This document shows, piece by piece, positions 1,499-25,390 of a DNA stretch of 53,144 nucleotides. The position numbers and the translations under genes were made by a program. The stretch lies in NCBI GenBank assembly GCA_030610765.1, contig JAUWRD010000001.1, forward strand, positions 1 through 53,144, in the 5' to 3' direction. Source of the stretch: Actinomycetes bacterium. GTDB taxonomy: Bacteria; Actinomycetota; Aquicultoria; CAJVYJ01; JAUVQD01. How positions within the stretch are numbered: position 1 is the stretch's first letter; each line of letters begins with the position of its first letter. A model generated the notes under the pieces. The model saw nothing but the letters and a program-made list of their open reading frames with translations. It was not told where the DNA came from and did no database searches.

Positions 1499-1590
1499 AA
1501 ATTAAGCGTTTTTTACGCATTTGAGAGCCCTTTTTGAGCAAAAGTTAGGGAAAAAACGACTGCACTTTTTTATAGCGCAAATTTGTGGGC

Positions 1591-1647
1591 TTGACAACAA
1601 ATAGCCAGTTGAGGTATATTCCAAAGCGAGCTGTTGAGTGATATAAT
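1591..1647 (+). promoter_or_regulatory. two tandem sigma70-like promoter candidates upstream of the cytochrome genes
   Basis: TTGACA(1591-1596)-18 nt-TATATT(1615-1620), and TTCCAA(1619-1624)-17 nt-TATAAT(1642-1647) with a TG at 1639-1640 (extended -10). Confidence 0.4.
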
Positions 1648-1749
1648 TAACCAAGATTCATCAGTGAGATGGCTCAATTTCGGTTGATAAAGAAATAAAG
1701 CACAAAGGTGTCGAAAAAGAACGCCTAGAAGAGGAAAAAACGAGAAGAA

Positions 1750-8548: not shown

Positions 8549-9397
8549 ATGAATAAAGAAAAGGTCACAACCGAAACAATAAGAGAAAAGAAGAATGGCC
8601 CTGAGCAGATCATTGCCTTAACTGCTTGGGACTATACGAGCGCGCAAATTGTTGACACAGCCGGTATAGACATAGTTTTAGTAGGGGACTCGCTTGCGAT
8701 GACCATACGGGGTGACGAGAACACCCTGGGGATAACTGTTCACGATATGATATACCACACGCAAATGGTATCAAGGGCTTGCCAAAGAGCTCTGGTAATC
8801 GCAGACATGCCGTTTATGTCCTACCAATTAAATGAAGTGCAAGCGACTAGGAACGCCGGCCGTTTTCTTAAAGCCGGTGGCGCCGGTGGGGTAAAGATCG
8901 AGGGGGGCATGAGAATGGCCTCTACCATAGAAAAGATAACGGGAGCCGGGATTCCAGTGATGGGACATATCGGCCTGACACCGCAGTCAGTTCACCAGAT
9001 TGGCGGGTACAAGGTGCAAGGAAAATCGTTAGAACCCGCCAAGGAGCTAGTGAAAGACGCAAAAGCGCTACAGGCGGCTGGTGTTTTTTCGCTCGTTCTG
9101 GAATGTGTTCCGTCCGAGCTCGCAAGTTTTATAACTGATTCAATCGATATTCCGACGATAGGCATTGGCGCCGGCTCGGGGTGTGACGGCCAGATCCAAG
9201 TCACCGCTGATGTCATCGGCTTAAAACAAGGAAGCGTCCCGAAGCACGCGAAGAAATATACTGATTTGAATCACTCTTTTATGACAGCTGTTAAGACCTA
9301 TGCCGCAGAGGTAACTAAGGGTGCTTTTCCAACTGAAGCAAACAGCTTCAAGAGCAGCGACGACCTAAAGCAATCCCTGGAAAAAGAAGATATTTAA
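8549..9397 (+). CDS. panB: 3-methyl-2-oxobutanoate hydroxymethyltransferase
   Basis: Family-typical LVGDSLAMT, ADMPFMSY, VKIEGG and GHIGLTPQS motifs. Confidence 0.93.
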   Translation: MNKEKVTTETIREKKNGPEQIIALTAWDYTSAQIVDTAGIDIVLVGDSLAMTIRGDENTLGITVHDMIYHTQMVSRACQRALVIADMPFMSYQLNEVQATRNAGRFLKAGGAGGVKIEGGMRMASTIEKITGAGIPVMGHIGLTPQSVHQIGGYKVQGKSLEPAKELVKDAKALQAAGVFSLVLECVPSELASFITDSIDIPTIGIGAGSGCDGQIQVTADVIGLKQGSVPKHAKKYTDLNHSFMTAVKTYAAEVTKGAFPTEANSFKSSDDLKQSLEKEDI

Positions 9398-10725
9398 AGG
9401 GCAAGCAGGGCTCCTTTGATCGATTCCAGATACGCGTGAATAGTCTCCTCGGCTTGATTGCAATGCGGATCATCAATTGAGCCGTTTATGCACATTGCGG
9501 CGTAGGCGCAACCTCCACCACAAAATGTTGCTACGGGGCAATCACGGCATTTCTTTAAAGTCATGATGCTTCTTCCGTTCCACTTATCAAGGGCTTTCTG
9601 ATCGAGAACTAGATCAGGATGATAAGAACCAACCGCAGTTCTCTGGTCTCCAATTGCTTCAGCGCACAGATAGACATTTTTGTCCGTGCCAAAAGTGTAG
9701 CAACTTAAATTGTTTGACTCACAATAGAAGAAACGAGGATAGCTGATTTGATCAGACTTAAGCGTGCTTATTATATAGTCGAGATTTCTGAAAAGGTCAG
9801 GACGGAATATTTCCACAACGGGGAAGTTCTTCTTCAAATCTAGCCAGATCTTTGCAGTCTCATCCTCCGTCAAGCGGTGGGGAACAGTTTCTCCTGTGTG
9901 ATTGTCCACTGGCGAAAGCAAAGCGGCAAAATTCTCATATTTATCCCAACCTCTCTGTATCATAAAGTTGGCCAAATCAGTCAAGCTGCCTATGTTTTCA
10001 CGATCTACATTAACTCGCACCCGTACTCGAATACCTCGCGCGAGCGCAGCGTCAATGGACGAGACAATTTCGTCAAACGTGCCTTGACCTCCGGTTTTCG
10101 GACGCCTTTTGTCGTGAATATCAGCAGTTCCGTCTAGTGTGATCTGGAAGTCTATTAGATGATCTTTGTACTGCCGCAAAAGAGGCAAAAACTCTTTTAG
10201 ATTCACTCCATTTGTAACCGCGCTAATAGTAAATTCTCGTTTACGCGCCTCATCCAAAATATAGGATATGATGGCGCGGTTAGCCGGCAAAAAAGGCTCA
10301 CCGCCAAAAAGCTGTATTGAGGCAGGTTTATCAGTCAGAGCTTCAATGGCACGAAAGATTGAATCGACCTCAGCAACGGTTAGCGCATGCGTTTCGACCT
10401 GAGTAAGATCACCCTCGAAACAATAAACACATCGTAAATTACAAGCGTAAGTCGGGCAAATAACAAACATCACTGGTCTGTCAATTCCCTTAAACTTTTC
10501 AAACAAGGCCTTAAGTTTATCTTCCTCCTCGGCCTCGGATTTATAGATATAACCTCGATCGAGTAACGACTGATATATGGGCGTGCTTGGTGTGATTGTT
10601 TCCGGTGACTCAAAATGATGCATGAACTCATTATCGATTAGGTCAATCGCCCCCGTTAATGTGTTGAACACGATGGTTTGATAGGCGTCAAGTTTATGCT
10701 TTACCAAGTATTTTGTTAAGTACAT
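9394..10725 (-). CDS. radical SAM / SPASM-domain peptide maturase-like protein
   Basis: CNLRCVYC (Cx3Cx2C) after an N-terminal extension of about 90 aa. C-terminal CRDCPVATFCGGGC (Cx2Cx5Cx3C), with upstream Cys residues completing a SPASM-type auxiliary-cluster region. The stop shares the tetranucleotide TTAA with the panB stop. Confidence 0.85.
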   Translation of the reverse strand: MYLTKYLVKHKLDAYQTIVFNTLTGAIDLIDNEFMHHFESPETITPSTPIYQSLLDRGYIYKSEAEEEDKLKALFEKFKGIDRPVMFVICPTYACNLRCVYCFEGDLTQVETHALTVAEVDSIFRAIEALTDKPASIQLFGGEPFLPANRAIISYILDEARKREFTISAVTNGVNLKEFLPLLRQYKDHLIDFQITLDGTADIHDKRRPKTGGQGTFDEIVSSIDAALARGIRVRVRVNVDRENIGSLTDLANFMIQRGWDKYENFAALLSPVDNHTGETVPHRLTEDETAKIWLDLKKNFPVVEIFRPDLFRNLDYIISTLKSDQISYPRFFYCESNNLSCYTFGTDKNVYLCAEAIGDQRTAVGSYHPDLVLDQKALDKWNGRSIMTLKKCRDCPVATFCGGGCAYAAMCINGSIDDPHCNQAEETIHAYLESIKGALLAL

Positions 10726-10775: not shown

Positions 10776-10819
10776 TTGACAAACAAGCGTTTGTTAAATA
10801 ACATTATCAATACTACAAT
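10776..10819. promoter_or_regulatory. divergent promoter region with 6-bp inverted repeat ACAAAC-N4-GTTTGT
   Basis: TTGACA(10776-10781)-17-TAACAT, and TTGTTA(10791-10796)-17-TACAAT(10814-10819). The inverted repeat 10779-10794 overlaps both -35 boxes. Lies between the divergent rSAM and M56 genes. Confidence 0.35.
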
Positions 10820-10893: not shown

Positions 10894-11973
10894 ATGGTTA
10901 TGTTTGATCAGATAGCCACGAGTACGTTAATTGACGACATCGCGCTTAGAATCCTGCTTAGTGTAACGACGGGCGCATTTTGGCTCGTTATAATTCTAGC
11001 GATCATCAGGCTATTTAAAATCAGAAACCCGAATTTAAAATATTTTCTGCTGACCATACCGTTACTAAAAAGTCTTTTGGCTCTAGCCAGAAGTTTGCCT
11101 CATTTTTCGGACTTCAAGGGAGTCTTTATTATAAGCGCTAAACTGCCGAATCCCGGAACGTTTCTGCCATCAATCGACTGGAAGAGCGCGGACTCGTTAT
11201 ACGGCAGCTATTTTCATCCGACAACCACAATTTCTGCGTCGACCATCGTAACTATTCTAGTCGCGAGTTTGATATTTTCGGCTTGGAGAATGGTTGGTAT
11301 GGTTAGGTTTGTCAGGCTCATAAACAAATCACAAGAGGTAGGCCGGGAGGAAAACATATCCTTGTTTGACATCCTCGATAAGCTAGTTGAAGAATACGGA
11401 ATTTCCTATCCGAAAGTGATTTTATTGGAGACAAGCGCCGCCCCCTTTACGATCGGGCTTAAGAATCCAATAATCGCTCTTTCGACCAATCTAATTGATC
11501 AATTAGAAACCTCGGAGATGGAGGCGATTCTGCGCCACGAGACAGCTCATATAAGCAGATATGATCATCTTCATCATTGGCTAGCTGTAATAATAAGAGA
11601 CATTCTGTTCTTTAATCCCGTTATTCATTATTTGCTTCCAAGACTGGTCTTTGAGAGGGAACGGGCCTGCGACTATCGGACTACGCTTAAAAGTAAACGC
11701 AGGGTCTTAGCGAAGAGCCTCGTCAAGGTTGCGGAAATCCAAGCCGCTCAACCTGCTTCACCCTTAATTAGCCTTTATGCTCCTCAAAGATTTATCCCAC
11801 ACACTCACTTCTATTTTAAAGAGCGCGTAAAGGAACTGCTTGAGCCAAAGATGGTTCATGTAATGCCAGGACACATTAAAAGACTTCTCTGGCCTGCACT
11901 TATGCTGGCCTTGATCACTCTGGATATACACTTGGTCACAACCGTTAAAAGGTTTATTCTGGTCTTAAGCTAG
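10894..11973 (+). CDS. M56 (BlaR1-like) family integral membrane zinc metallopeptidase lacking a sensor domain
   Basis: Multiple TM helices. HETAHISRYDH (HExxH in the M56-type context). 359 aa ending in another TM helix. No penicillin-binding-type C-terminal domain. Confidence 0.7.
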   Translation: MVMFDQIATSTLIDDIALRILLSVTTGAFWLVIILAIIRLFKIRNPNLKYFLLTIPLLKSLLALARSLPHFSDFKGVFIISAKLPNPGTFLPSIDWKSADSLYGSYFHPTTTISASTIVTILVASLIFSAWRMVGMVRFVRLINKSQEVGREENISLFDILDKLVEEYGISYPKVILLETSAAPFTIGLKNPIIALSTNLIDQLETSEMEAILRHETAHISRYDHLHHWLAVIIRDILFFNPVIHYLLPRLVFERERACDYRTTLKSKRRVLAKSLVKVAEIQAAQPASPLISLYAPQRFIPHTHFYFKERVKELLEPKMVHVMPGHIKRLLWPALMLALITLDIHLVTTVKRFILVLS

Positions 11974-12062
11974 TATTTCGCTAGTTCTTTAAAAACAATC
12001 GCTTTCTCACTAGACATGTAGCGTACTAAACCCTTAGTATGGTCACTAAGGAGGTGCGGAAC

Positions 12063-12173
12063 ATGAGACCTATTAATTCCGATGAGAAGCTATGGTCTGA
12101 GGTTTCCGACGACAAAGTAACACGTGGTAGTAATTGTTGTTGGAATATCGCTTGGTGCTGGTTCTGGGGCTAA
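12063..12173 (+). CDS. unannotated 36-aa Cys/Trp-rich peptide, candidate RiPP precursor
   Basis: AAGGAGG at 12048-12054, then 8 nt, then ATG 12063. Translation is MRPINSDEKLWSEVSDDKVTRGSNCCWNIAWCWFWG, ending at TAA 12171-12173. The N-terminal half is acidic and the last 12 residues hold 3 Cys, 4 Trp and 1 Phe. A hairpin follows. An in-frame ATG at 12039 (44 aa) lacks an SD. Confidence 0.55.
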   Translation: MRPINSDEKLWSEVSDDKVTRGSNCCWNIAWCWFWG

Positions 12174-12183
12174 AACTTTAAAA

Positions 12184-12232
12184 CGCTGTCTTTGTTGGGG
12201 GGTTGTTTCATTTTTTGGGAGGGAAGACAGCG
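12184..12232. terminator. hairpin between the convergent peptide ORF and the response-regulator gene
   Basis: 9-bp arms CGCTGTCTT (12184-12192) and AAGACAGCG (12224-12232) with a 31-nt loop. On the minus strand the stem is followed by TTTTAAAGTTTTA, so it best fits a terminator for the kinase-regulator operon. Its function on the plus strand is less certain. Confidence 0.5.
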
Positions 12233-12235
12233 CCT

Positions 12236-12886
12236 CTAGTCCACAAGACCTTCTTTTACCGCCATCAAAGCCGCTGAGGTTCTGTCGTTTATATGAAGTT
12301 TCCTGAATATGTGGCTGAGATGATTCTTCACAGTTTTATCGCTAATGAAAAGTTGAGCGGCGATTTCCTTGTTACTCATTGCTTTGGCGATACACGCCAA
12401 TACTTCTTTTTCACGAGAAGTCAATGCTTCATAATGTTTTGCTTTTTCATCTTCGTGTTTCTGAATATTTGAGAATTCATGAAGCAGCTTCGACGCCATC
12501 GAGGGTTGCAGAAGAGATAGCCCATCTTTGGCAGCCTTTATTACCTGTATCAGCTCTTGCGGAGCGCGACTTTTTAAGAGGTATCCGATAGCGCCGGCCT
12601 TAATTGCTTCAAACAAGAATTGTTCCTCTTCATGCATCGTGAGCATGACAACGGTTCCCTCGCTATCAGCTTCTTTTATCTTTCTGGTTGCTTCAATGCC
12701 ATCCATCTCGGGCATTTGGATGTCCATCAAAATAACATCAGAATCGAGGCTTCCAGCAAGCTCTACCGCTTGTTTGCCGTTTTCAGCTTCGCCGACAACT
12801 TTCATACCCGCTTCCTCAAGTATTCTTCTTAGGCCCTGCCTCATTAGCGTGTGATCATCTACGATTAAGATAGATATGGGTTCCAT
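12236..12886 (-). CDS. NarL/LuxR-family two-component response regulator
   Basis: Receiver domain (ILIVDDH..., ILMDIQMPEMDG) plus C-terminal LuxR-type HTH (LTSREKEVL...NKEIA...S.KTVKNHL..I..KL). Confidence 0.9.
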   Translation of the reverse strand: MEPISILIVDDHTLMRQGLRRILEEAGMKVVGEAENGKQAVELAGSLDSDVILMDIQMPEMDGIEATRKIKEADSEGTVVMLTMHEEEQFLFEAIKAGAIGYLLKSRAPQELIQVIKAAKDGLSLLQPSMASKLLHEFSNIQKHEDEKAKHYEALTSREKEVLACIAKAMSNKEIAAQLFISDKTVKNHLSHIFRKLHINDRTSAALMAVKEGLVD

Positions 12887-12891
12887 GATTT

Positions 12892-14565
12892 CTAAGCTCC
12901 TTTTACAGTAACCGGTATTCGGACATTGACAGACGTTCCTTCACCAAGCGCGCTTATGATTTCGACGTCTCCGTGCAGAGATTGAACGCGTTCGCGCATG
13001 CCGGATAAGCCAAAGCCGCTATTGTTCGAGATCTGTGTTTTCACGCTCTCAAAGCTGAATCCCTGTCCGTTATCTTTCACTGACATTTTCACTCCCTCGT
13101 TATCCGAAGATAGATCGAGAGTAACCTGACTTGCTTGCGCGTGTTTCTTTATGTTGTTTAATGCTTCCTGCGCCAGCCTGAAGAGAGCGGTCTCCACAGT
13201 TTCGGGCAGACGAGTTTGTTTCTGAGCATTCAAGATTGTTTTAATGTCATTCATCTCAGCGAAGCGTTCCAGGTGTTTTTCTAGCGTTGGGACCAACCCT
13301 AAGGAATCTAATATTGTGGGTCGGAGATCATAAATTACCAGCCTTAAGTCAGCAATCGTATCTTCAACGATCTTTTCAATCTGTTTGATCTCAGTGATCG
13401 CCGATTTATCTTCTGAGGTAAGAGAACTTTCCAGAAAGCTAAGACTGAAGATGATTCCGGACAGATTTTGAATGACACCGTCATGAAGATCGCGCGCAAA
13501 TCTGCGTCTTTCCTCCTCTTGAGCGTTGGCTAAACGCGTCATAACGCGTTGCAACTGGCTGTGGTTGGCGATTACCTCGCTGTATAGATCGGCGTTTTCC
13601 AAAACAATCGTCGCGGACCGGACAATACCAGATGCAATTTGAATATCTCGATCATTGAAGTCATGAGCGGTCTTATTGTAGAAAACCATTGCTATAGCGT
13701 GCACTTGATCTCTTTTAACGCAAGGGATGAGAATGGCTGATTTTATGCCAAACCTGGCAACAACCTCTCTGTTAATCGAGATGTTTTGATCAGCCCTGTT
13801 AATGGCGACAGGGAGTTGTTTTTCAAGCATCTCTTTAATTGCGGGCGACGAAACACTGTCGAGCTTGGCCGCGGAATCATTTAGGCAAACAAAGCCCTGA
13901 CCGTTAGTTGCTTTAATAAAACTGAGACACCCGTCGGCGAAAAGGGCTCTTGATAATGAAACGGACAACATTTTTAGAACCTCGTTGGCGTCAGCTAACC
14001 CGCCAATTTCCAGCGCAACCTGCAAAAGTGTTGACGATACCTCTGCCTCTTCTCTAAGTTTGTCTTTCTCAGTCACTAGCTCATCCCAGTTGTCTACAAA
14101 GAAACCACTTTCTTGATCTAGGAGCCCTTGCAGTTCAGAGGATTTACCCTTATTTAGGCGCGCCTGTTTAATAAGCTTATCGCGCTCACGAGCTAGAGAG
14201 CTCATCTGATTTTTGAGTTCCTTGTTTCGCGCTCGACCCAGACCGACAAAAAACCCACTGAGCGTTGGAACTACGATCACTAGAACAATAAGCAGGCTTT
14301 GAGTTCTTGATTGTTTTAAGAACTGAACAAAATCAAGATTGCTACTTGCCGAATCATAATTATAGACTGCCAGCAACAGCAGGACTCCCACTATCAGTCC
14401 CGCCACCGTGTATTTTCCATTTCGTCGCAAGTCAAAAGGACTCGTCAAGCACTGACCCTTTCCAAGGCATCCGACTTCTTCTTTAATTATTGTCGGCAAA
14501 TCCTTGATGACTAAATAGAGCTTTACTGAAATATTATTCCTAATTATAATCAAAGAGCTTGGCAT
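12892..14565 (-). CDS. sensor histidine kinase: two TM helices with a short loop, coiled coil, GAF-like domain, HisKA_3, HATPase
   Basis: H-box FARDLHDGVIQNL, N-box NNIKKHA, and the G-boxes DNGQGF and GFGLSGMRERV. TM helices VAGLIVGVLLLLAVY and LLIVLVIVVPTLSGFFVGL are separated by about 20 aa. The start codon is uncertain; the first 45 aa of the listed ORF may be untranslated. Confidence 0.85.
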   Translation of the reverse strand: MPSSLIIIRNNISVKLYLVIKDLPTIIKEEVGCLGKGQCLTSPFDLRRNGKYTVAGLIVGVLLLLAVYNYDSASSNLDFVQFLKQSRTQSLLIVLVIVVPTLSGFFVGLGRARNKELKNQMSSLARERDKLIKQARLNKGKSSELQGLLDQESGFFVDNWDELVTEKDKLREEAEVSSTLLQVALEIGGLADANEVLKMLSVSLSRALFADGCLSFIKATNGQGFVCLNDSAAKLDSVSSPAIKEMLEKQLPVAINRADQNISINREVVARFGIKSAILIPCVKRDQVHAIAMVFYNKTAHDFNDRDIQIASGIVRSATIVLENADLYSEVIANHSQLQRVMTRLANAQEEERRRFARDLHDGVIQNLSGIIFSLSFLESSLTSEDKSAITEIKQIEKIVEDTIADLRLVIYDLRPTILDSLGLVPTLEKHLERFAEMNDIKTILNAQKQTRLPETVETALFRLAQEALNNIKKHAQASQVTLDLSSDNEGVKMSVKDNGQGFSFESVKTQISNNSGFGLSGMRERVQSLHGDVEIISALGEGTSVNVRIPVTVKGA

Positions 14566-23618: not shown

Positions 23619-24686
23619 TTGACAAGGAAAAGCCGTGACGAAAAACAGCTGTTAGCTTTAAGCGGATTGCCGTTTGGCATCGGAAGCATGCCAAACAAAG
23701 ACCCGCTTTCAACATGTGAAATGATAGTTGATAATTTTCCCGAGAGCCCATTCTGGCCAGAGCTACCTAAACGTAGTTGGCGAGAATCAATGGGCGTCGA
23801 ACAAGCGCGTGATCTTCCAGGCATGGTGACCGATGAGAAGAATGGTCGTATCTTTTTCGATGCCACTAAGGATATCTCGGGAGATCTTGAAGTCTTCTAC
23901 AATAGCTATCTCGATGATGATATATCGAAATATGCGATCTCGGGCGAATTCCTCTCCGGGCTAGACGCCATGATCACAACGATCAAACGACGTGGCTTAT
24001 CGCCGCTTGTCCTCAAGGGACAGTTGACCGGACCAACTACTCTGGGATTGATCCTGAAAGATCAAAACAATAAAGCACTGCTCTTTAACGAGCAAATGAT
24101 GGATGTTTTGACAAAAGCGACGGCCATGAAGGCCAAATGGCTGGTTCGTTTAATGGAAAAATACTGCGAGGTGCCGATCGTCTTTTTTGATGAACCAATG
24201 CTTCAATCTATCGGATCCGCCTCAGTCCCCATCGACAAGGATATGGCGATTAAAAGGCTTAAGGAAATCATTGACTCTGTAGATTGCTTGACCGGTGGTC
24301 ATTGTTGCGGAAACACAGATTGGTCGATTTTGATGGCTGCTGGAAACGATATAATTGCTTTCGACGCCTGGAGTTACCTTGACACCATAACCCTCTATGC
24401 GGAAGAGCTAAAAGATTTTATTGAGAATGACGGATTTCTGGCTTGGGGCATAATACCGGCTTCGGCGGAAGGGGCAAGCGTCGGTGTTGAAGAGCTCAAA
24501 AGCCGACTGCAAAGCGGTTTTTCAAAAGTTGCCCTTAAAACCGGCCTGTCCAAGAAGAAACTTGCGAAGCATAGCGTTATTACTCCTGGCTGCGGATTAG
24601 GGAGCCTAAGCGTTGATCAGGCACGTGTTATTCTAGAGAAGACCTCTGCGATCTCAGGAAAAGATTTTGAGCACCTAACCTTATAA
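23619..24686 (+). CDS. MetE catalytic-domain-like (Meth_synt_2 family) zinc methyltransferase, short 'core-MetE'-type
   Basis: LPFGIGSMP near the N-terminus (compare GSFPR in MetE), GGHCCG (H-x-C zinc ligands) and ITPGCGLGS (compare PDCGLK). 355 aa, so it lacks the N-terminal MetE domain. Start (TTG) uncertain. Confidence 0.5.
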   Translation: MTRKSRDEKQLLALSGLPFGIGSMPNKDPLSTCEMIVDNFPESPFWPELPKRSWRESMGVEQARDLPGMVTDEKNGRIFFDATKDISGDLEVFYNSYLDDDISKYAISGEFLSGLDAMITTIKRRGLSPLVLKGQLTGPTTLGLILKDQNNKALLFNEQMMDVLTKATAMKAKWLVRLMEKYCEVPIVFFDEPMLQSIGSASVPIDKDMAIKRLKEIIDSVDCLTGGHCCGNTDWSILMAAGNDIIAFDAWSYLDTITLYAEELKDFIENDGFLAWGIIPASAEGASVGVEELKSRLQSGFSKVALKTGLSKKKLAKHSVITPGCGLGSLSVDQARVILEKTSAISGKDFEHLTL

Positions 24687-24700
24687 TACTACGCTCTTAG

Positions 24701-24729
24701 TTTACTTCCAACCTGCTTCAATCTATAAT
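24701..24729 (+). promoter_or_regulatory. sigma70-like promoter of comEA
   Basis: TTTACT(24701-24706)-17 nt-TATAAT(24724-24729). ATG 24740 lies only 10 nt after the -10 and has no SD. Confidence 0.45.
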
Positions 24730-24739
24730 TTTAGACATT

Positions 24740-25390
24740 ATGACAATTCCCCCTGATTTAGGTGACTGGTTCAAAGAACAAATAAGTTCGCTAAAAGAAC
24801 AGACGCGGTTTAGTCGATCTCAAGTTATAGTGGTCACCGCGCTGGCAATAGCAATAGCTTTTGCAGGCCTTTTGATTAACAAACAAACTCGGATTACAAA
24901 ACCAAGAATCGAACAACCCAAGCGTCGTGCCGTCGTCAAGAAAAAAGAGAAGGCGATTAAGCAGATATATGTCCACGTCGGGGGTTCTGTCCTGAGGCCC
25001 GGTTTATATCGATTGCAGCTTGGAGCCCGAGCCGCTGAGGCTGTACAATCAGCCGGTGGGGTCGTTGAAGACGGCGATATCGACGCTATTAACCTTGCAA
25101 CCAAGCTGACGGATGGTCAGAAGATCATCGTGCCTAAAATCAGAAGCATAACTGAGGCAACTTCACCTCTGATCTATGACGCGGATTCTGAGGGTCCACT
25201 GGTTAATCTAAATACGGCTGCAACGACGCAACTTGATACCTTGGATGTCATTGTACCGGTTCTGGCAGGAAGAATAGTTGGTTGGCTACAAAAACACGGT
25301 AGGTTTAAGAACATTCGGCAACTCAACGATGTCAGCGGCATTGGTCCAAAAAAATATGAGCAAATCAAAGACTCTGTCAAAGTAGAATAG
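24740..25390 (+). CDS. comEA: competence protein ComEA (SLBB plus helix-hairpin-helix DNA-binding domain)
   Basis: TM anchor, IYVHVGGSVLRPGLY (SLBB) and C-terminal VNLNTA...L..VSGIGPKKYEQI (HhH). Confidence 0.8.
   Translation: MTIPPDLGDWFKEQISSLKEQTRFSRSQVIVVTALAIAIAFAGLLINKQTRITKPRIEQPKRRAVVKKKEKAIKQIYVHVGGSVLRPGLYRLQLGARAAEAVQSAGGVVEDGDIDAINLATKLTDGQKIIVPKIRSITEATSPLIYDADSEGPLVNLNTAATTQLDTLDVIVPVLAGRIVGWLQKHGRFKNIRQLNDVSGIGPKKYEQIKDSVKVE

Follow-up and report, generated by a model that had tools for sequence, protein, structure and literature searches.

Radical SAM-modified RiPPs are fertile ground for the discovery of new peptide chemistry and of antibiotics, darobactin being one example. 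Several characterized or catalogued systems resemble the locus described here. CteA/CteB (thermocellin, SCIFF) and PapA/PapB (freyrasin) pair a radical SAM/SPASM maturase, which has an N-terminal RRE and two auxiliary clusters, with a short precursor whose leader is N-terminal and whose core contains Cys. PapA carries six CSANDA hexads, and PapB forms one in-line Cys–Asp/Glu thioether per repeat (PMC9413430). The CefB, TIGR04463, Clo7bot and geopeptide maturases are likewise radical SAM/SPASM enzymes paired with Cys-rich small peptides; we know of no biochemical characterization of these families. Short, Trp-rich cores modified by radical SAM/SPASM enzymes of the same fold are found in darobactin and dynobactin (DarE/DynA), streptide (StrB/SuiB) and the triceptides (XyeB/YhhB 3-CyFE). 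Radical SAM/SPASM enzymes also make PQQ, mycofactocin and the cross-links of QhpC. On the regulatory side, M56/BlaI pairs such as BlaR1/BlaI are established as signalling modules, and a sensor-less actinobacterial BlaR of the Mycobacterium tuberculosis Rv1845c/Rv1846c type was reportedly described by Sala and co-workers in 2009 (cited in PMC8457756). Repressors of the BlaI/CopY family bind TAC...GTA dyads (PMC8457756, PMC7253601). A literature search returned no description of a radical SAM cassette with an M56 protease, BlaR1 or a penicillinase repressor.

Here, we analysed a 36-codon ORF and its neighbourhood within the window, the whole 53,144 nt stretch of DNA under study (Table 1). Our main interpretation, to which we assign a probability of roughly 0.72, is that the ORF encodes the precursor of a radical SAM-modified RiPP of a new family, probably cross-linked through Cys and encoded in a cassette with an M56 protease. 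The M56 and peptide genes of the window lie in that order on one strand, and the radical SAM gene is divergent. The cassette has a stable position beside panB, and cobalamin genes are also present in the window.

Table 1. Features of the precursor peptide locus, with positions in the window
Feature	Position	Strand	Details
Radical SAM/SPASM peptide maturase, 443 aa, with N-terminal RRE-like domain (predicted)	9394..10725	-	PF04055 match
M56 (BlaR1-like) membrane zinc metalloprotease, 359 aa	10894..11973	+	PF05569, 86 bits against a cut-off of 31
Putative sigma-70-like promoter of the peptide gene, TAGACA-N18-TAGTAT	12011..12040	+	Promoter scan
Inverted repeat TACTA-N6-TAGTA, candidate BlaI-type operator	12024..12039	+	Overlaps the -10 box
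Shine-Dalgarno sequence AAGGAGGTG	12048..12056	+	Read from sequence; 6-8 nt 5' of the ATG
Precursor peptide gene, 36 codons plus TAA	12063..12173	+	Translation MRPINSDEKLWSEVSDDKVTRGSNCCWNIAWCWFWG
Leader, residues 1-24 (putative boundary with core)	12063..12134	+	Motif (K/R)-(P/S)-(I/V/L)-N-x(2-4)-L-W
Core, residues 25-36, CCWNIA-WCWFWG	12135..12170	+	Two hexads, x-C-W-x-x-(G/A/S)
Conserved stem CGCTGTCTT/AAGACAGCG	12184..12232	both	Arms 12184-12192 and 12224-12232, between the convergent stop codons
NarL/LuxR-type response regulator	12236..12886	-	Domain match; convergent two-component system
GAF/HisKA_3 kinase	12892..14565	-	Domain match; convergent two-component system

Re-reading the region reproduced the sequence, the Shine-Dalgarno element and its spacing, and the Trp and Cys counts given in the initial annotation. 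The peptide contains five Trp residues (W11, W27, W31, W33 and W35) and three Cys residues (C25, C26 and C32), and translation confirmed the annotated clustering of all three Cys and four of the five Trp in the last 12 residues. Residues 1–22, by comparison, include five acidic and four basic side chains. Trp and Cys account for seven of the 12 core residues, against a background of 0.9 % W and 1.0 % C in the long ORFs of the window, and amongst the 483 small ORFs (25–80 aa) of the window this was the only one with at least five W plus C in its last 12 residues. The sequence AAGGAGGTG occurs once across the window; its AAGGAGG portion, at 12048–12054, lies 8 nt ahead of the ATG. We take 12063 as the start because an in-frame ATG at 12039 is unconserved and has no Shine-Dalgarno sequence. 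As was also correctly noted, the region has a single ORF of at least 60 aa, 12124..12306, which is out of frame. When every frame of the window and of 20 loci was scanned by regex, no second copy of the peptide was found in the window, and a match at 1570..1650 on the minus strand was dismissed as a chance hit lacking the core.

The ORF is too short for gene-caller cut-offs, and a collection of 15 billion proteins does not contain its exact sequence, as might be expected of a chance frame in the 3' UTR and terminator region of convergent operons. Comparison with related loci argues strongly against such an origin. The precursor ORF was found beside orthologues of the radical SAM/SPASM and M56 genes in more than 14 independent loci (orthologues in L001, L002/3/16, L004, L005/6/14, L007, L008, L009, L015 and L013, and peptides P0122 and P0124–P0126). 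These loci were recovered using the radical SAM enzyme, instead of the peptide, as query, and separate peptide-based searches also recovered the ORF. A Shine-Dalgarno sequence (GGAGGTG or GGAGG) stood 6–9 nt 5' of the start in 13 of the 13 loci compared, and the start, frame, Shine-Dalgarno sequence and C/W pattern are conserved where the surrounding intergenic DNA cannot be aligned. The initial annotation had proposed conservation of the frame, Shine-Dalgarno sequence and C/W pattern as a check, and all three were kept in every related locus examined, from 94 % down to 34 % identity of the radical SAM enzyme. The peptide ORF always lies ~0.03–0.7 kb from the M56 gene and/or the radical SAM gene, and 0.01–1.4 kb from the radical SAM orthologue in every full locus recovered.

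The substitution pattern also bears on this question. Across the peptide gene pS was 0.6–0.9 and pN 0.25–0.45, and in the core pN was 0.06–0.13 with pS saturated. The sense frame is free of stops and has a pN/pS of 0.42, whilst the other frames have values of ~1 or contain stops, so that pN below pS without stops, the signature of purifying selection, is confined to the sense frame. Moreover, relatives are annotated as genes in other assemblies (P0122, P0124–P0128 and P0133–P0136). The conserved Shine-Dalgarno sequence and the frame-specific selection effectively refute a chance frame, and on this sequence evidence 12063..12173 is a real, conserved, never-annotated gene.

The family is sparsely represented in databases. 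Only two related clusters were present among 1.84 billion cluster representatives, and Pfam and NCBIfam profile scans with the peptide and five relatives gave no matches at E values up to 10. A word-index search with a 44-aa extended form of the peptide yielded no candidates. An exhaustive phmmer search with the peptide returned four matches, two of which (P0121 and P0123) were long repetitive proteins without an aligned stretch and were discarded as spurious. In L018, a Paenibacillus locus whose radical SAM enzyme is 33 % identical, the adjoining 40-aa ORF has no leader motif; it was not accepted as a family member, and the locus marks the outer limit of the peptide family. The family occurs in uncultured sediment Actinomycetota (Aquicultor-like lineages).

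The proposed division of the peptide into leader and core agrees with its pattern of conservation: the leader motif is constant, and the core varies with the CC pair kept. In 16 peptides spanning Actinomycetota through Firmicutes (Anaerocolumna, Herbivorax and Clostridium), the leader residues N5, L10 and W11 are invariant, giving the short form P-x-N-x4-L-W. C25, C26 and C32 are invariant in the same alignment, and the C-terminal W-G is conserved with the three Cys among aligned orthologues. The third Cys is replaced by Gly in orthologue P0125, so the three Cys are not all obligatory. P0133 and P0134 have the core CCWFWG-CCWYWG, and clades that share the leader differ in their cores, which include CCWxxG-WCWFWG, CCFYYSYCWGW, CIDCCYKI (two copies), CCDQD (n copies) and CFxCFx. 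The leader/core junction showed no conserved motif for leader cleavage.

This variation also sorts the chemistries that the initial annotation had offered for the core. Its Asn-based acceptor motifs (N-x-C and N-x3-C) were rejected, as N24 and N28 are replaced by H, G, Y, F or A in orthologues and neither Asn is conserved; nor is an NxxC motif kept. The Trp motifs are specific to the subfamily of the window. Because Cys alone is constant across the wider family, Cys-centred chemistry is favoured; we nonetheless share the earlier view that sequence cannot decide the chemistry.

The radical SAM enzyme has the architecture expected of a peptide maturase. The CxxxCxxC Cys residues (C95, C99 and C102) and C335, C354, C393, C396, C402, C406 and C422 are invariant among its orthologues, and in the AF2 model (pLDDT 94) residues 7–79 adopt a beta-beta-beta-alpha-alpha-alpha order. 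The enzyme is thus predicted to carry an RRE-like N-terminal domain together with SPASM auxiliary-cluster Cys. The nearest solved structure is that of CteB, a thioether-forming enzyme, both by sequence (E 1e-16) and by fold, with SuiB second by fold. A short bipartite ORF that is linked across genomes to a radical SAM/SPASM maturase with a predicted RRE-like domain has the generic hallmarks of a radical SAM RiPP precursor. The best NCBIfam matches of the enzyme are RiPP maturases for Cys-rich peptides (CefB, TIGR04463, Clo7bot, geopeptide and PapB), all below cut-off. Since even the best score, for CefB (NF038107), is 151.5 bits against 600 and covers residues 11–262 only, the type of reaction is not transferable from a named family.

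Comparison with individual families places the locus beside, and not within, the known groups. Conserved core Cys are shared with sactipeptides and ranthipeptides, but the enzyme reaches no curated cut-off and does not belong to a characterized thioether maturase family such as PapB, SCIFF/CteB, RumMC or StsB; the window cassette also differs in its M56 protease and ancestral BlaI, and its leader motif matches no curated precursor model. The SCIFF maturase model scored 78 bits against 425, and the peptide had no NCBIfam match at E ≤10, which sets the locus apart from SCIFF. The core has short Cys-containing repeats like those of PapA, but lacks a conserved Asp, Glu or Thr acceptor, its conserved non-Cys residues being Trp/aromatic and Gly/Ala/Ser; the PapB model reached 95 bits against 340. 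Distant relatives with Cys repeats of five-residue period (CCDQD) recall a Cys-every-fifth arrangement, yet the enzyme scores three to five times below the cut-offs of CefB, TIGR04463 (140 bits against 525), Clo7bot (119 against 600) and geopeptide (115 against 400). At E=10 the precursors still had no match to any NCBIfam peptide model, and with maturase and peptide both failing the comparison the pair does not fall within CefA/CefB. The W-x-W and W-x-x-W spacings of the core resemble cyclophane and ether cross-link motifs. Unlike Trp-centred radical SAM RiPPs, the core CCWNIAWCWFWG has no Lys or Arg partner, and the wider family keeps the leader, the enzyme clade and Cys but not Trp. Scores of 88 bits against 450 for DynA, with no Lys in the core, and of 63 against 445 for YhhB, with aromatic positions unconserved in the wider family, place the locus outside the darobactin/dynobactin and triceptide groups. 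The missing Lys likewise separates it from streptide (KxxxW), despite SuiB being the second-best structure.

The same enzyme superfamily raises the prospect that the ORF gives rise not to a secreted natural product but to a redox cofactor or metal-binding prosthetic group derived from the peptide, as happens with PQQ, mycofactocin or the CTQ subunit QhpC. The enzyme matches the models for QhpD and MftC weakly, the W-G terminus and three Cys are conserved, and the stable position by panB and the cobalamin genes would suit such a role. Reactive residues of cofactor precursors are normally near-invariant, however, whilst here the whole core is swapped (CCDQD, CIDCCYKI, CFxCF) and the leader is kept. 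The cassette also has no conserved partner dehydrogenase or carrier protein, and in Firmicutes the neighbouring genes encode ABC exporters and a CPBP protease, as in bacteriocin loci. We therefore consider a cofactor precursor quite improbable.

The second conserved partner of the peptide gene is the M56 protease, which adjoins it in every Actinomycetota-type locus. The HExxH motif (H215, E216 and H219) and an ERACD motif are invariant in nine orthologues, as in the BlaR1/MecR1 zinc proteases. Unlike in BlaR1, no penicillin-sensor domain was detected in the protein, which has M56/M48 domains only and aligns with positions 101–249 of the 585 of the BlaR1 profile. The prominence of this gene suggests another reading, in which the peptide is real but unmodified by the radical SAM enzyme, acting as a small hydrophobic peptide, for example a membrane-active one or a ligand or substrate controlling M56 (the signalling peptide of a BlaR1-like switch), with the proximity of the radical SAM gene reflecting shared regulation. 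The same-strand arrangement with M56 in the window, the divergent radical SAM gene, an M56 neighbour as constant as the radical SAM gene in Actinomycetota loci, and the signalling role of M56/BlaI pairs are all compatible with this idea. Against it, the Firmicutes loci L012 and L017 keep the same leader motif beside the radical SAM enzyme in the absence of an M56 gene, indicating that the constant partner of the leader is the radical SAM enzyme. The peptide gene of L010, L011 and L019 lies 10–80 nt directly 5' of the radical SAM gene, and the enzyme has a predicted RRE-like leader-binding domain. An unmodified peptide is accordingly an unlikely alternative, and we retain modification by the radical SAM enzyme as the preferred interpretation.

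The resemblance to BlaI/BlaR1 (MecI/MecR1) extends to the repressor gene in related cassettes: L008, L009, L010, L011, L019 and L020 contain blaI, encoding a winged-helix Penicillinase_R repressor, immediately 5'. A TAC...GTA-type dyad, a candidate operator, is found at promoters. L001, L002, L004 and L005 keep both hexamers of the putative peptide promoter, and L007 and L015 keep its -10 box, in diverging flanks. TACTA-N6-TAGTA has a single match in the 53 kb window, with 0.01 expected, and it occupies the equivalent place in L001, L005, L015 and others. In L019/L020, it stands ~30 nt 5' of blaI and recurs behind a consensus promoter that follows the radical SAM gene. The spacing of the dyad differs between loci, being 3 nt in L008 and 1 nt in L009. 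A near-match with one mismatch at 24686–24703, 5' of a ComEA-like gene, was set aside as within chance (0.6 expected).

Unlike the classical system, the window has no BlaI gene: tblastn with five BlaI orthologues against the 53 kb gave noise only. Any regulatory model thus requires that the repressor is encoded elsewhere. The switch would control the genes of a RiPP precursor and of its maturase instead of those of a beta-lactamase or PBP2a, and processing of the precursor might be an alternative or additional task of M56. The best reading of the compared gene orders is an ancestral blaI–M56–precursor–rSAM cassette, as in L019, from which the window would have lost blaI whilst keeping the dyad. 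The convergent two-component system is present in window-type loci and was rejected as a cassette member, being missing from L009, L010, L011 and L019, which keep M56, peptide and radical SAM genes; it is probably a neighbour outside the cassette.

Downstream of the peptide gene, the stem closes a 31-nt G-rich loop with four G-tracts and folds on either strand. A per-sequence stem search revealed that lineages differ in stem sequence with the pairing kept, and that the loop G-tracts are conserved; the hairpin is absent in L007 and L008. An Rfam scan of 11900–12320 gave no matches at E ≤10. The hairpin reported after the ORF is thus present, but because the plus strand has no U-tract (a T-run is found on the minus strand) it is not a classic terminator of the precursor ORF.

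A hairpin behind an ORF whose last 12 codons hold four TGG and three TGY calls to mind a regulatory leader peptide, in which these codons would sense tRNA-Trp/Cys charging and the hairpin would attenuate transcription by trp-leader logic. The position of the ORF directly 5' of the radical SAM gene in L010, L011 and L019 would suit such a device. In the window, however, no same-strand gene lies downstream, the next gene being convergent, and neither the lack of a plus-strand U-tract nor the absence of the hairpin in two loci fits attenuation. Some relatives have cores without Trp, and the invariance of N5, L10 and W11, together with selection at the amino acid level, would be needless for codon sensing. 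We regard attenuation as very unlikely.

Conserved linkage, frame and leader/core organization instead support the proposal of the initial annotation that this unannotated, bipartite peptide is a RiPP precursor serving the adjacent radical SAM and M56 genes. In the mechanism that we envisage, the motif P-x-N-x4-L-W would dock on the RRE-like N-terminal domain of the radical SAM enzyme, and the SAM cluster with two auxiliary clusters would install intramolecular cross-links in the core. Most probably these would be sactipeptide- or ranthipeptide-type thioethers that link the thiols of the invariant Cys to carbon atoms in neighbouring residues, with one small ring for each hexad repeat. The conserved aromatic positions could equally be sites of C–C or C–O cross-links, as with SuiB or DarE, enzymes of the same fold. 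The product would be compact, very hydrophobic and Trp-rich, and might be expected to partition into membranes. If M56 is ancestrally the partner of the BlaI repressor, then production is probably gated by regulated proteolysis of BlaI at the TACTA-N6-TAGTA operator; leader removal could be a second or alternative role of M56.

We also speculate, more tentatively, that the locus represents a new class that combines core cross-links of a type for which we found no report among radical SAM enzymes, installed by an uncurated radical SAM/SPASM clade, with gating by a sensor-less BlaI/BlaR1-type switch (blaI–M56–precursor–rSAM). In such cross-links, Cys-S might be bonded to a carbon of Trp or another aromatic residue, or else to C-alpha of the small residue that closes each hexad. 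It is possible that the signal sensed by M56 is the membrane-partitioning product itself, or that M56 doubles as the leader peptidase.

With no Pfam or NCBIfam model, this peptide family is invisible to annotation, yet the precursor is small enough for synthesis and single-enzyme testing. The shared leader motif could be used to search Firmicutes and Actinomycetota for a much wider clade of Cys-repeat peptides. The pairing with a BlaR1-like M56 protease, ancestrally together with BlaI, would be an undescribed form of RiPP control or processing, and the cassette could hint at a natural function for the many sensor-less BlaI/BlaR pairs of Actinobacteria.

Translation of the small plus-strand ORF gives MRPINSDEKLWSEVSDDKVTRGSNCCWNIAWCWFWG* and bears out the peptide reported in the initial annotation, together with its SD motif (AAGGAGG, with the ATG 8 nt further on) and its composition: five Trp and three Cys, of which only one Trp lies outside the last 12 residues. 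The window has 483 small ORFs (25-80 aa), and no other reaches five W+C in its last 12 residues; W makes up 0.9% and C 1.0% of the long ORFs. An extended reading of the frame from 12039 lacks an SD and is unconserved and was rejected, so 12063 was taken as the start. As had been noted, the only ORF of at least 60 aa in this region is out of frame with the peptide ORF.

Positions of the features discussed, in the window unless a related locus is named
Feature	Position	Strand	Remarks
Radical SAM/SPASM enzyme (rSAM)	9394..10725	-	443 aa; divergent from the M56 gene
rSAM/panB overlap	9394-9397		
Imperfect palindrome	10776-10797		rSAM/M56 control region
M56 (BlaR1-like) membrane zinc protease	10894..11973	+	359 aa; 5' of the peptide gene, same strand; PF05569, 86 bits
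Promoter-like element	12011-12040		peptide gene
Dyad	12024-12039		
Antisense ORF	12026-12115	-	29 aa
SD of the peptide ORF	12048-12054		
Peptide ORF	12063..12173	+	36 codons
Out-of-frame ORF	12124..12306		
Stem arms	12184-12192, 12224-12232		between the convergent stops of the peptide and response regulator genes
NarL-type response regulator and GAF/HisKA_3 kinase	12236..14565	-	convergent, downstream of the peptide gene
One-mismatch dyad copy	24686-24703		ATACTACGCTCTTAGTTT; just 5' of a ComEA-like gene (24740..25390) and comEC
Second BlaI and M56 genes	L010, 6541-9171		
Firmicutes locus	L017, 378-9374		
Dyad 5' of blaI	L019, 4407-4422		
Four-gene operon	L019, 4450-7561		likewise in L020
Dyad after rSAM	L019, 7610-7625		

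Related loci were sought with the rSAM enzyme, not the peptide, as query, and the contigs of a graded series of homologues were retrieved; every locus with an rSAM identity between 94% and 36% holds a small homologous ORF. Peptide-based searches found locus L015, plus an exact copy (L013), and the further members P0122, P0124-P0126, a Clostridium peptide (P0136) and P0133/P0134, in which ...ACCWFWGCCWYWG is followed by a 13-residue tail. The initial annotation had proposed looking among relatives for loss of the frame, the SD or the C/W pattern; the frame is kept, GGAGG(TG) lies 6-9 nt 5' of the start in every copy of the gene, and the C/W pattern is conserved.

Peptides of the related loci, with the identity of the locus rSAM enzyme to that of the window
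Locus	rSAM identity	Peptide
L001	94%	MRPVNSNERLWSEVSDDKVTRGSHCCWNIAWCWFWG
L002	64%	MKPVNSNDSLWQEQPDAKNSHGGCCWAIGWCWFWG
L004	65%	MKPINSNESLWSAKSNNEKAHGGHCCWAIGWCWFWG
L005	66%	MKPINSNDSLWSEQSDNQKAHAGHCCWAIGWCWFWG
L007	56%	VKPLNSTDKLWGKTDPGDVSKGAGCCWNIGWCWYWG
L008	55%	VEPVNSSKRLWTTIAEDEKPIDSKGGCCWYVGWCWYWG
L009	44%	MTSLNQNLWTSPENGQDPTAKGHFCCWFASFCWWWGK
L010	39%	MRSLNRDDMLWDAIEHAECLEDSTSCCFYYSYCWGW
L011 (Candidatus Aquicultor)	37%	LSLNRDDMLWDAVVADELCAENAASCCWAICWG
L012 (Anaerocolumna)	37%	MKPINEKKELWTELSVEKLEKREEYIHVCIDCCYKICIDCCFKI
L017 (Herbivorax)	36%	two copies, MNSLNNTNDLW...CCDQDCCDQD...

Over the whole ORF, pN (Nei-Gojobori) is 0.25-0.45 against a saturated pS of 0.6-0.9, and in the core pN is 0.06-0.13 (13 synonymous and 6 non-synonymous differences in the example pair L004 and L005). 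When one alignment was read in six frames, the sense frame alone combined a pN/pS of 0.42 with zero stops, against about 1.0-1.45, or stops, in the other five. The conserved SD, pN below pS and constraint in the sense frame only refute a chance ORF, a reading that we give practically no weight. An attenuator built on Trp and Cys codons is also very improbable, given selection on the leader at the amino-acid level and the lack of a downstream gene on the same strand. These comparisons indicate that the peptide ORF is, as first proposed, a real gene, and one systematically missed by annotation; in a 15-billion-protein collection its relatives are labelled 'hypothetical protein' at best, and the exact window peptide was not found there. 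Relatives seem to keep an antisense ORF as well (...SFELIGFMF...); with a pN/pS of 0.60 and stops in some loci, it was rejected as a gene and is read as a shadow of the sense-frame constraint.

Alignment of 16 members agrees with the bipartite leader and core suggested earlier: N5, L10 and W11 are invariant in the N-terminal part, and a CC doublet and one later Cys in the C-terminal part. From Actinomycetota through Clostridia the peptides have the leader motif (K/R)-(P/S)-(I/V/L)-N-x2-4-L-W in common; the cores are clade-specific. The core of the window subfamily consists of two hexads, [x-C-W-x-x-(G/A/S)]x2 (CCWNIA-WCWFWG in the window, CCWFWG-CCWYWG in P0133), with strongly conserved aromatic positions; other clades carry short Cys repeats (CCDQD pentads, CIDCC(Y/F)KI nonads and CF-x triads). 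The Asn-based motifs of the initial annotation did not hold up, as N24 and N28 are unconserved and replaced by H/G/Y/F and A/Y/F. In P0125, a relative of P0124, the third core Cys is naturally changed to Gly (CCWVYSWGWYWG), which suggests that the CC doublet alone is indispensable. Pfam and NCBIfam searches with the peptide gave no match, even at E=10. That the peptide is a cofactor precursor is quite unlikely, since cores are replaced wholesale between clades and exporter genes stand in the Firmicutes loci.

For the rSAM enzyme, each of the best NCBIfam matches is a RiPP maturase acting on Cys-rich peptides (CefB, 151 bits; TIGR04463, 140; Clo7bot, 119; geopeptide, 115; PapB, 95), and each falls far below its own curated cut-off. 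C95, C99 and C102 (CxxxCxxC) and seven C-terminal Cys are invariant across 57 homologues. In the AlphaFold2 model (pLDDT 94.4), residues 7-79 form three strands and then three helices, the predicted layout being that of leader-binding RRE domains; C-terminal to this come the rSAM barrel and SPASM region. Among solved structures, CteB, which forms the thioethers of thermocellin, is the nearest both by sequence (5wgg, E 1.3e-16) and by fold (5why/5wgg, E about 1e-19, full-length alignment), with SuiB, anSME and ChlB the next fold matches.

The M56 gene adjoins the peptide gene in all Actinomycetota-type loci, and its HExxH and ERACD motifs are invariant in nine of nine aligned orthologues; a domain search found no penicillin-sensor domain in the window M56. 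A BlaI-family repressor gene (PF03965) lies 5' of M56 in L008, L009, L010, L011 and L019/L020. The last pair, with an rSAM enzyme 34% identical to that of the window, has a compact operon, blaI–M56–precursor–rSAM (gaps of 30 and 10 nt), whose 54-aa precursor combines a tandem CCWFWG-CCWYWG core with an acidic, Pro-rich tail of 13 residues that the window peptide lacks. The window clade has lost blaI and inverted the rSAM gene; tblastn detected no blaI in the 53 kb. Firmicutes loci have no M56, and carry a CPBP protease and ABC/FtsX exporters instead. The leader accompanies the rSAM enzyme even in loci without M56, which makes it unlikely that the product is an unmodified signalling or membrane peptide serving M56.

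L017 (Herbivorax sp. ANBcel31) is a larger Firmicutes version of the locus, in which two precursors with the shared leader motif and CCDQD-repeat cores occur with two paralogous rSAM/SPASM enzymes, an AMP-binding enzyme and ABC/FtsX exporters. L010 has a second BlaI and a second M56 gene a few kb 3' of the cassette, with an M42 peptidase between; no second precursor was detected. The two-component system is confined to the window-type synteny FtsH–PanB–[rSAM, M56, peptide]–RR–HK–CobQ, and was not counted in the cassette because it is absent from L009, L010, L011 and L019. The rSAM gene and panB converge and share 4 nt at their 3' ends. L002, L004, L005 and L009 preserve this overlap, which makes the cassette an old insertion next to panB, passed on by vertical inheritance.

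The peptide gene has a promoter-like TAGACA-N18-TAGTAT, conserved in the closest lineages amid diverging intergenic DNA, whose -10 box is overlapped by a dyad, TACTA-N6-TAGTA; the window has this one copy, where 0.01 would be expected. Related loci have the dyad in the corresponding position, with different spacing in L008 and L009, and L019/L020 have it about 30 nt 5' of blaI. Since BlaI/CopY-family repressors bind TAC...GTA dyads (PMC8457756; PMC7253601), we infer a candidate BlaI-type operator; with no blaI in the window, the repressor would therefore be encoded elsewhere in the genome. In L019/L020 a second dyad lies 3' of the rSAM gene and is preceded by a consensus TTGACA-N17-TATAAT; in L019 no obvious ORF follows it, and it could serve an sRNA or an unannotated target. 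The one-mismatch copy near comEC was rejected as a further site, its count fitting chance expectation. An imperfect palindrome, TTGACAAAC-AAGC-GTTTGTTAA, lies in the control region between the divergent rSAM and M56 genes, where it overlaps the -35 box predicted for M56; GTAGTAT-like boxes recur there in related loci.

The hairpin initially described 3' of the ORF is present, without a plus-strand U-tract; the T-run is confined to the minus strand and, among the loci, to L001 and the window. The stem sequence is lineage-specific and its pairing is kept (CGCTGTCTT, ACCGTCTC, CGTCTC, CGCTGCTT), and its loop of 25-31 nt has four conserved G-tracts (GGGnGGG...GGGnGGG) that look like a G-quadruplex motif. 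L007 and L008 lack the element, which has no Rfam match.

Sequence comparison shows the peptide ORF to be a coding gene that is conserved, in a bipartite pattern, and linked to an M56 protease as well as an rSAM/SPASM enzyme. We propose that the leader binds the RRE-like domain of the enzyme, which would then cross-link the core, most probably as thioethers through the invariant Cys, each repeat unit closing into one small ring much like the in-line rings that PapB forms in repeat substrates (PMC9413430). Trp-centred C-C or C-O cross-links (SuiB/DarE-type) are possible in the window subfamily, because its aromatics are strongly conserved and the fold fits either type of reaction. The Trp-rich product would be compact and very hydrophobic and would probably act in or at membranes, and BlaI/M56 may gate expression by regulated proteolysis, M56 may take off the leader, or both.

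The system resembles sacti- and ranthipeptide systems in its way of working, whereas the defining features tested set it apart from the darobactin, streptide and triceptide types; the enzyme belongs to no curated maturase family by threshold, and the precursor matches no curated precursor model. Full-text literature searches found no paper joining rSAM RiPPs with M56, BlaR1 or BlaI, and no description of such a W/C core. We classify the system as an rSAM/SPASM RiPP whose leader family and BlaI/BlaR1-like cassette architecture are both undescribed and whose W/C core is unusual; its gene and family are solid and directly testable.
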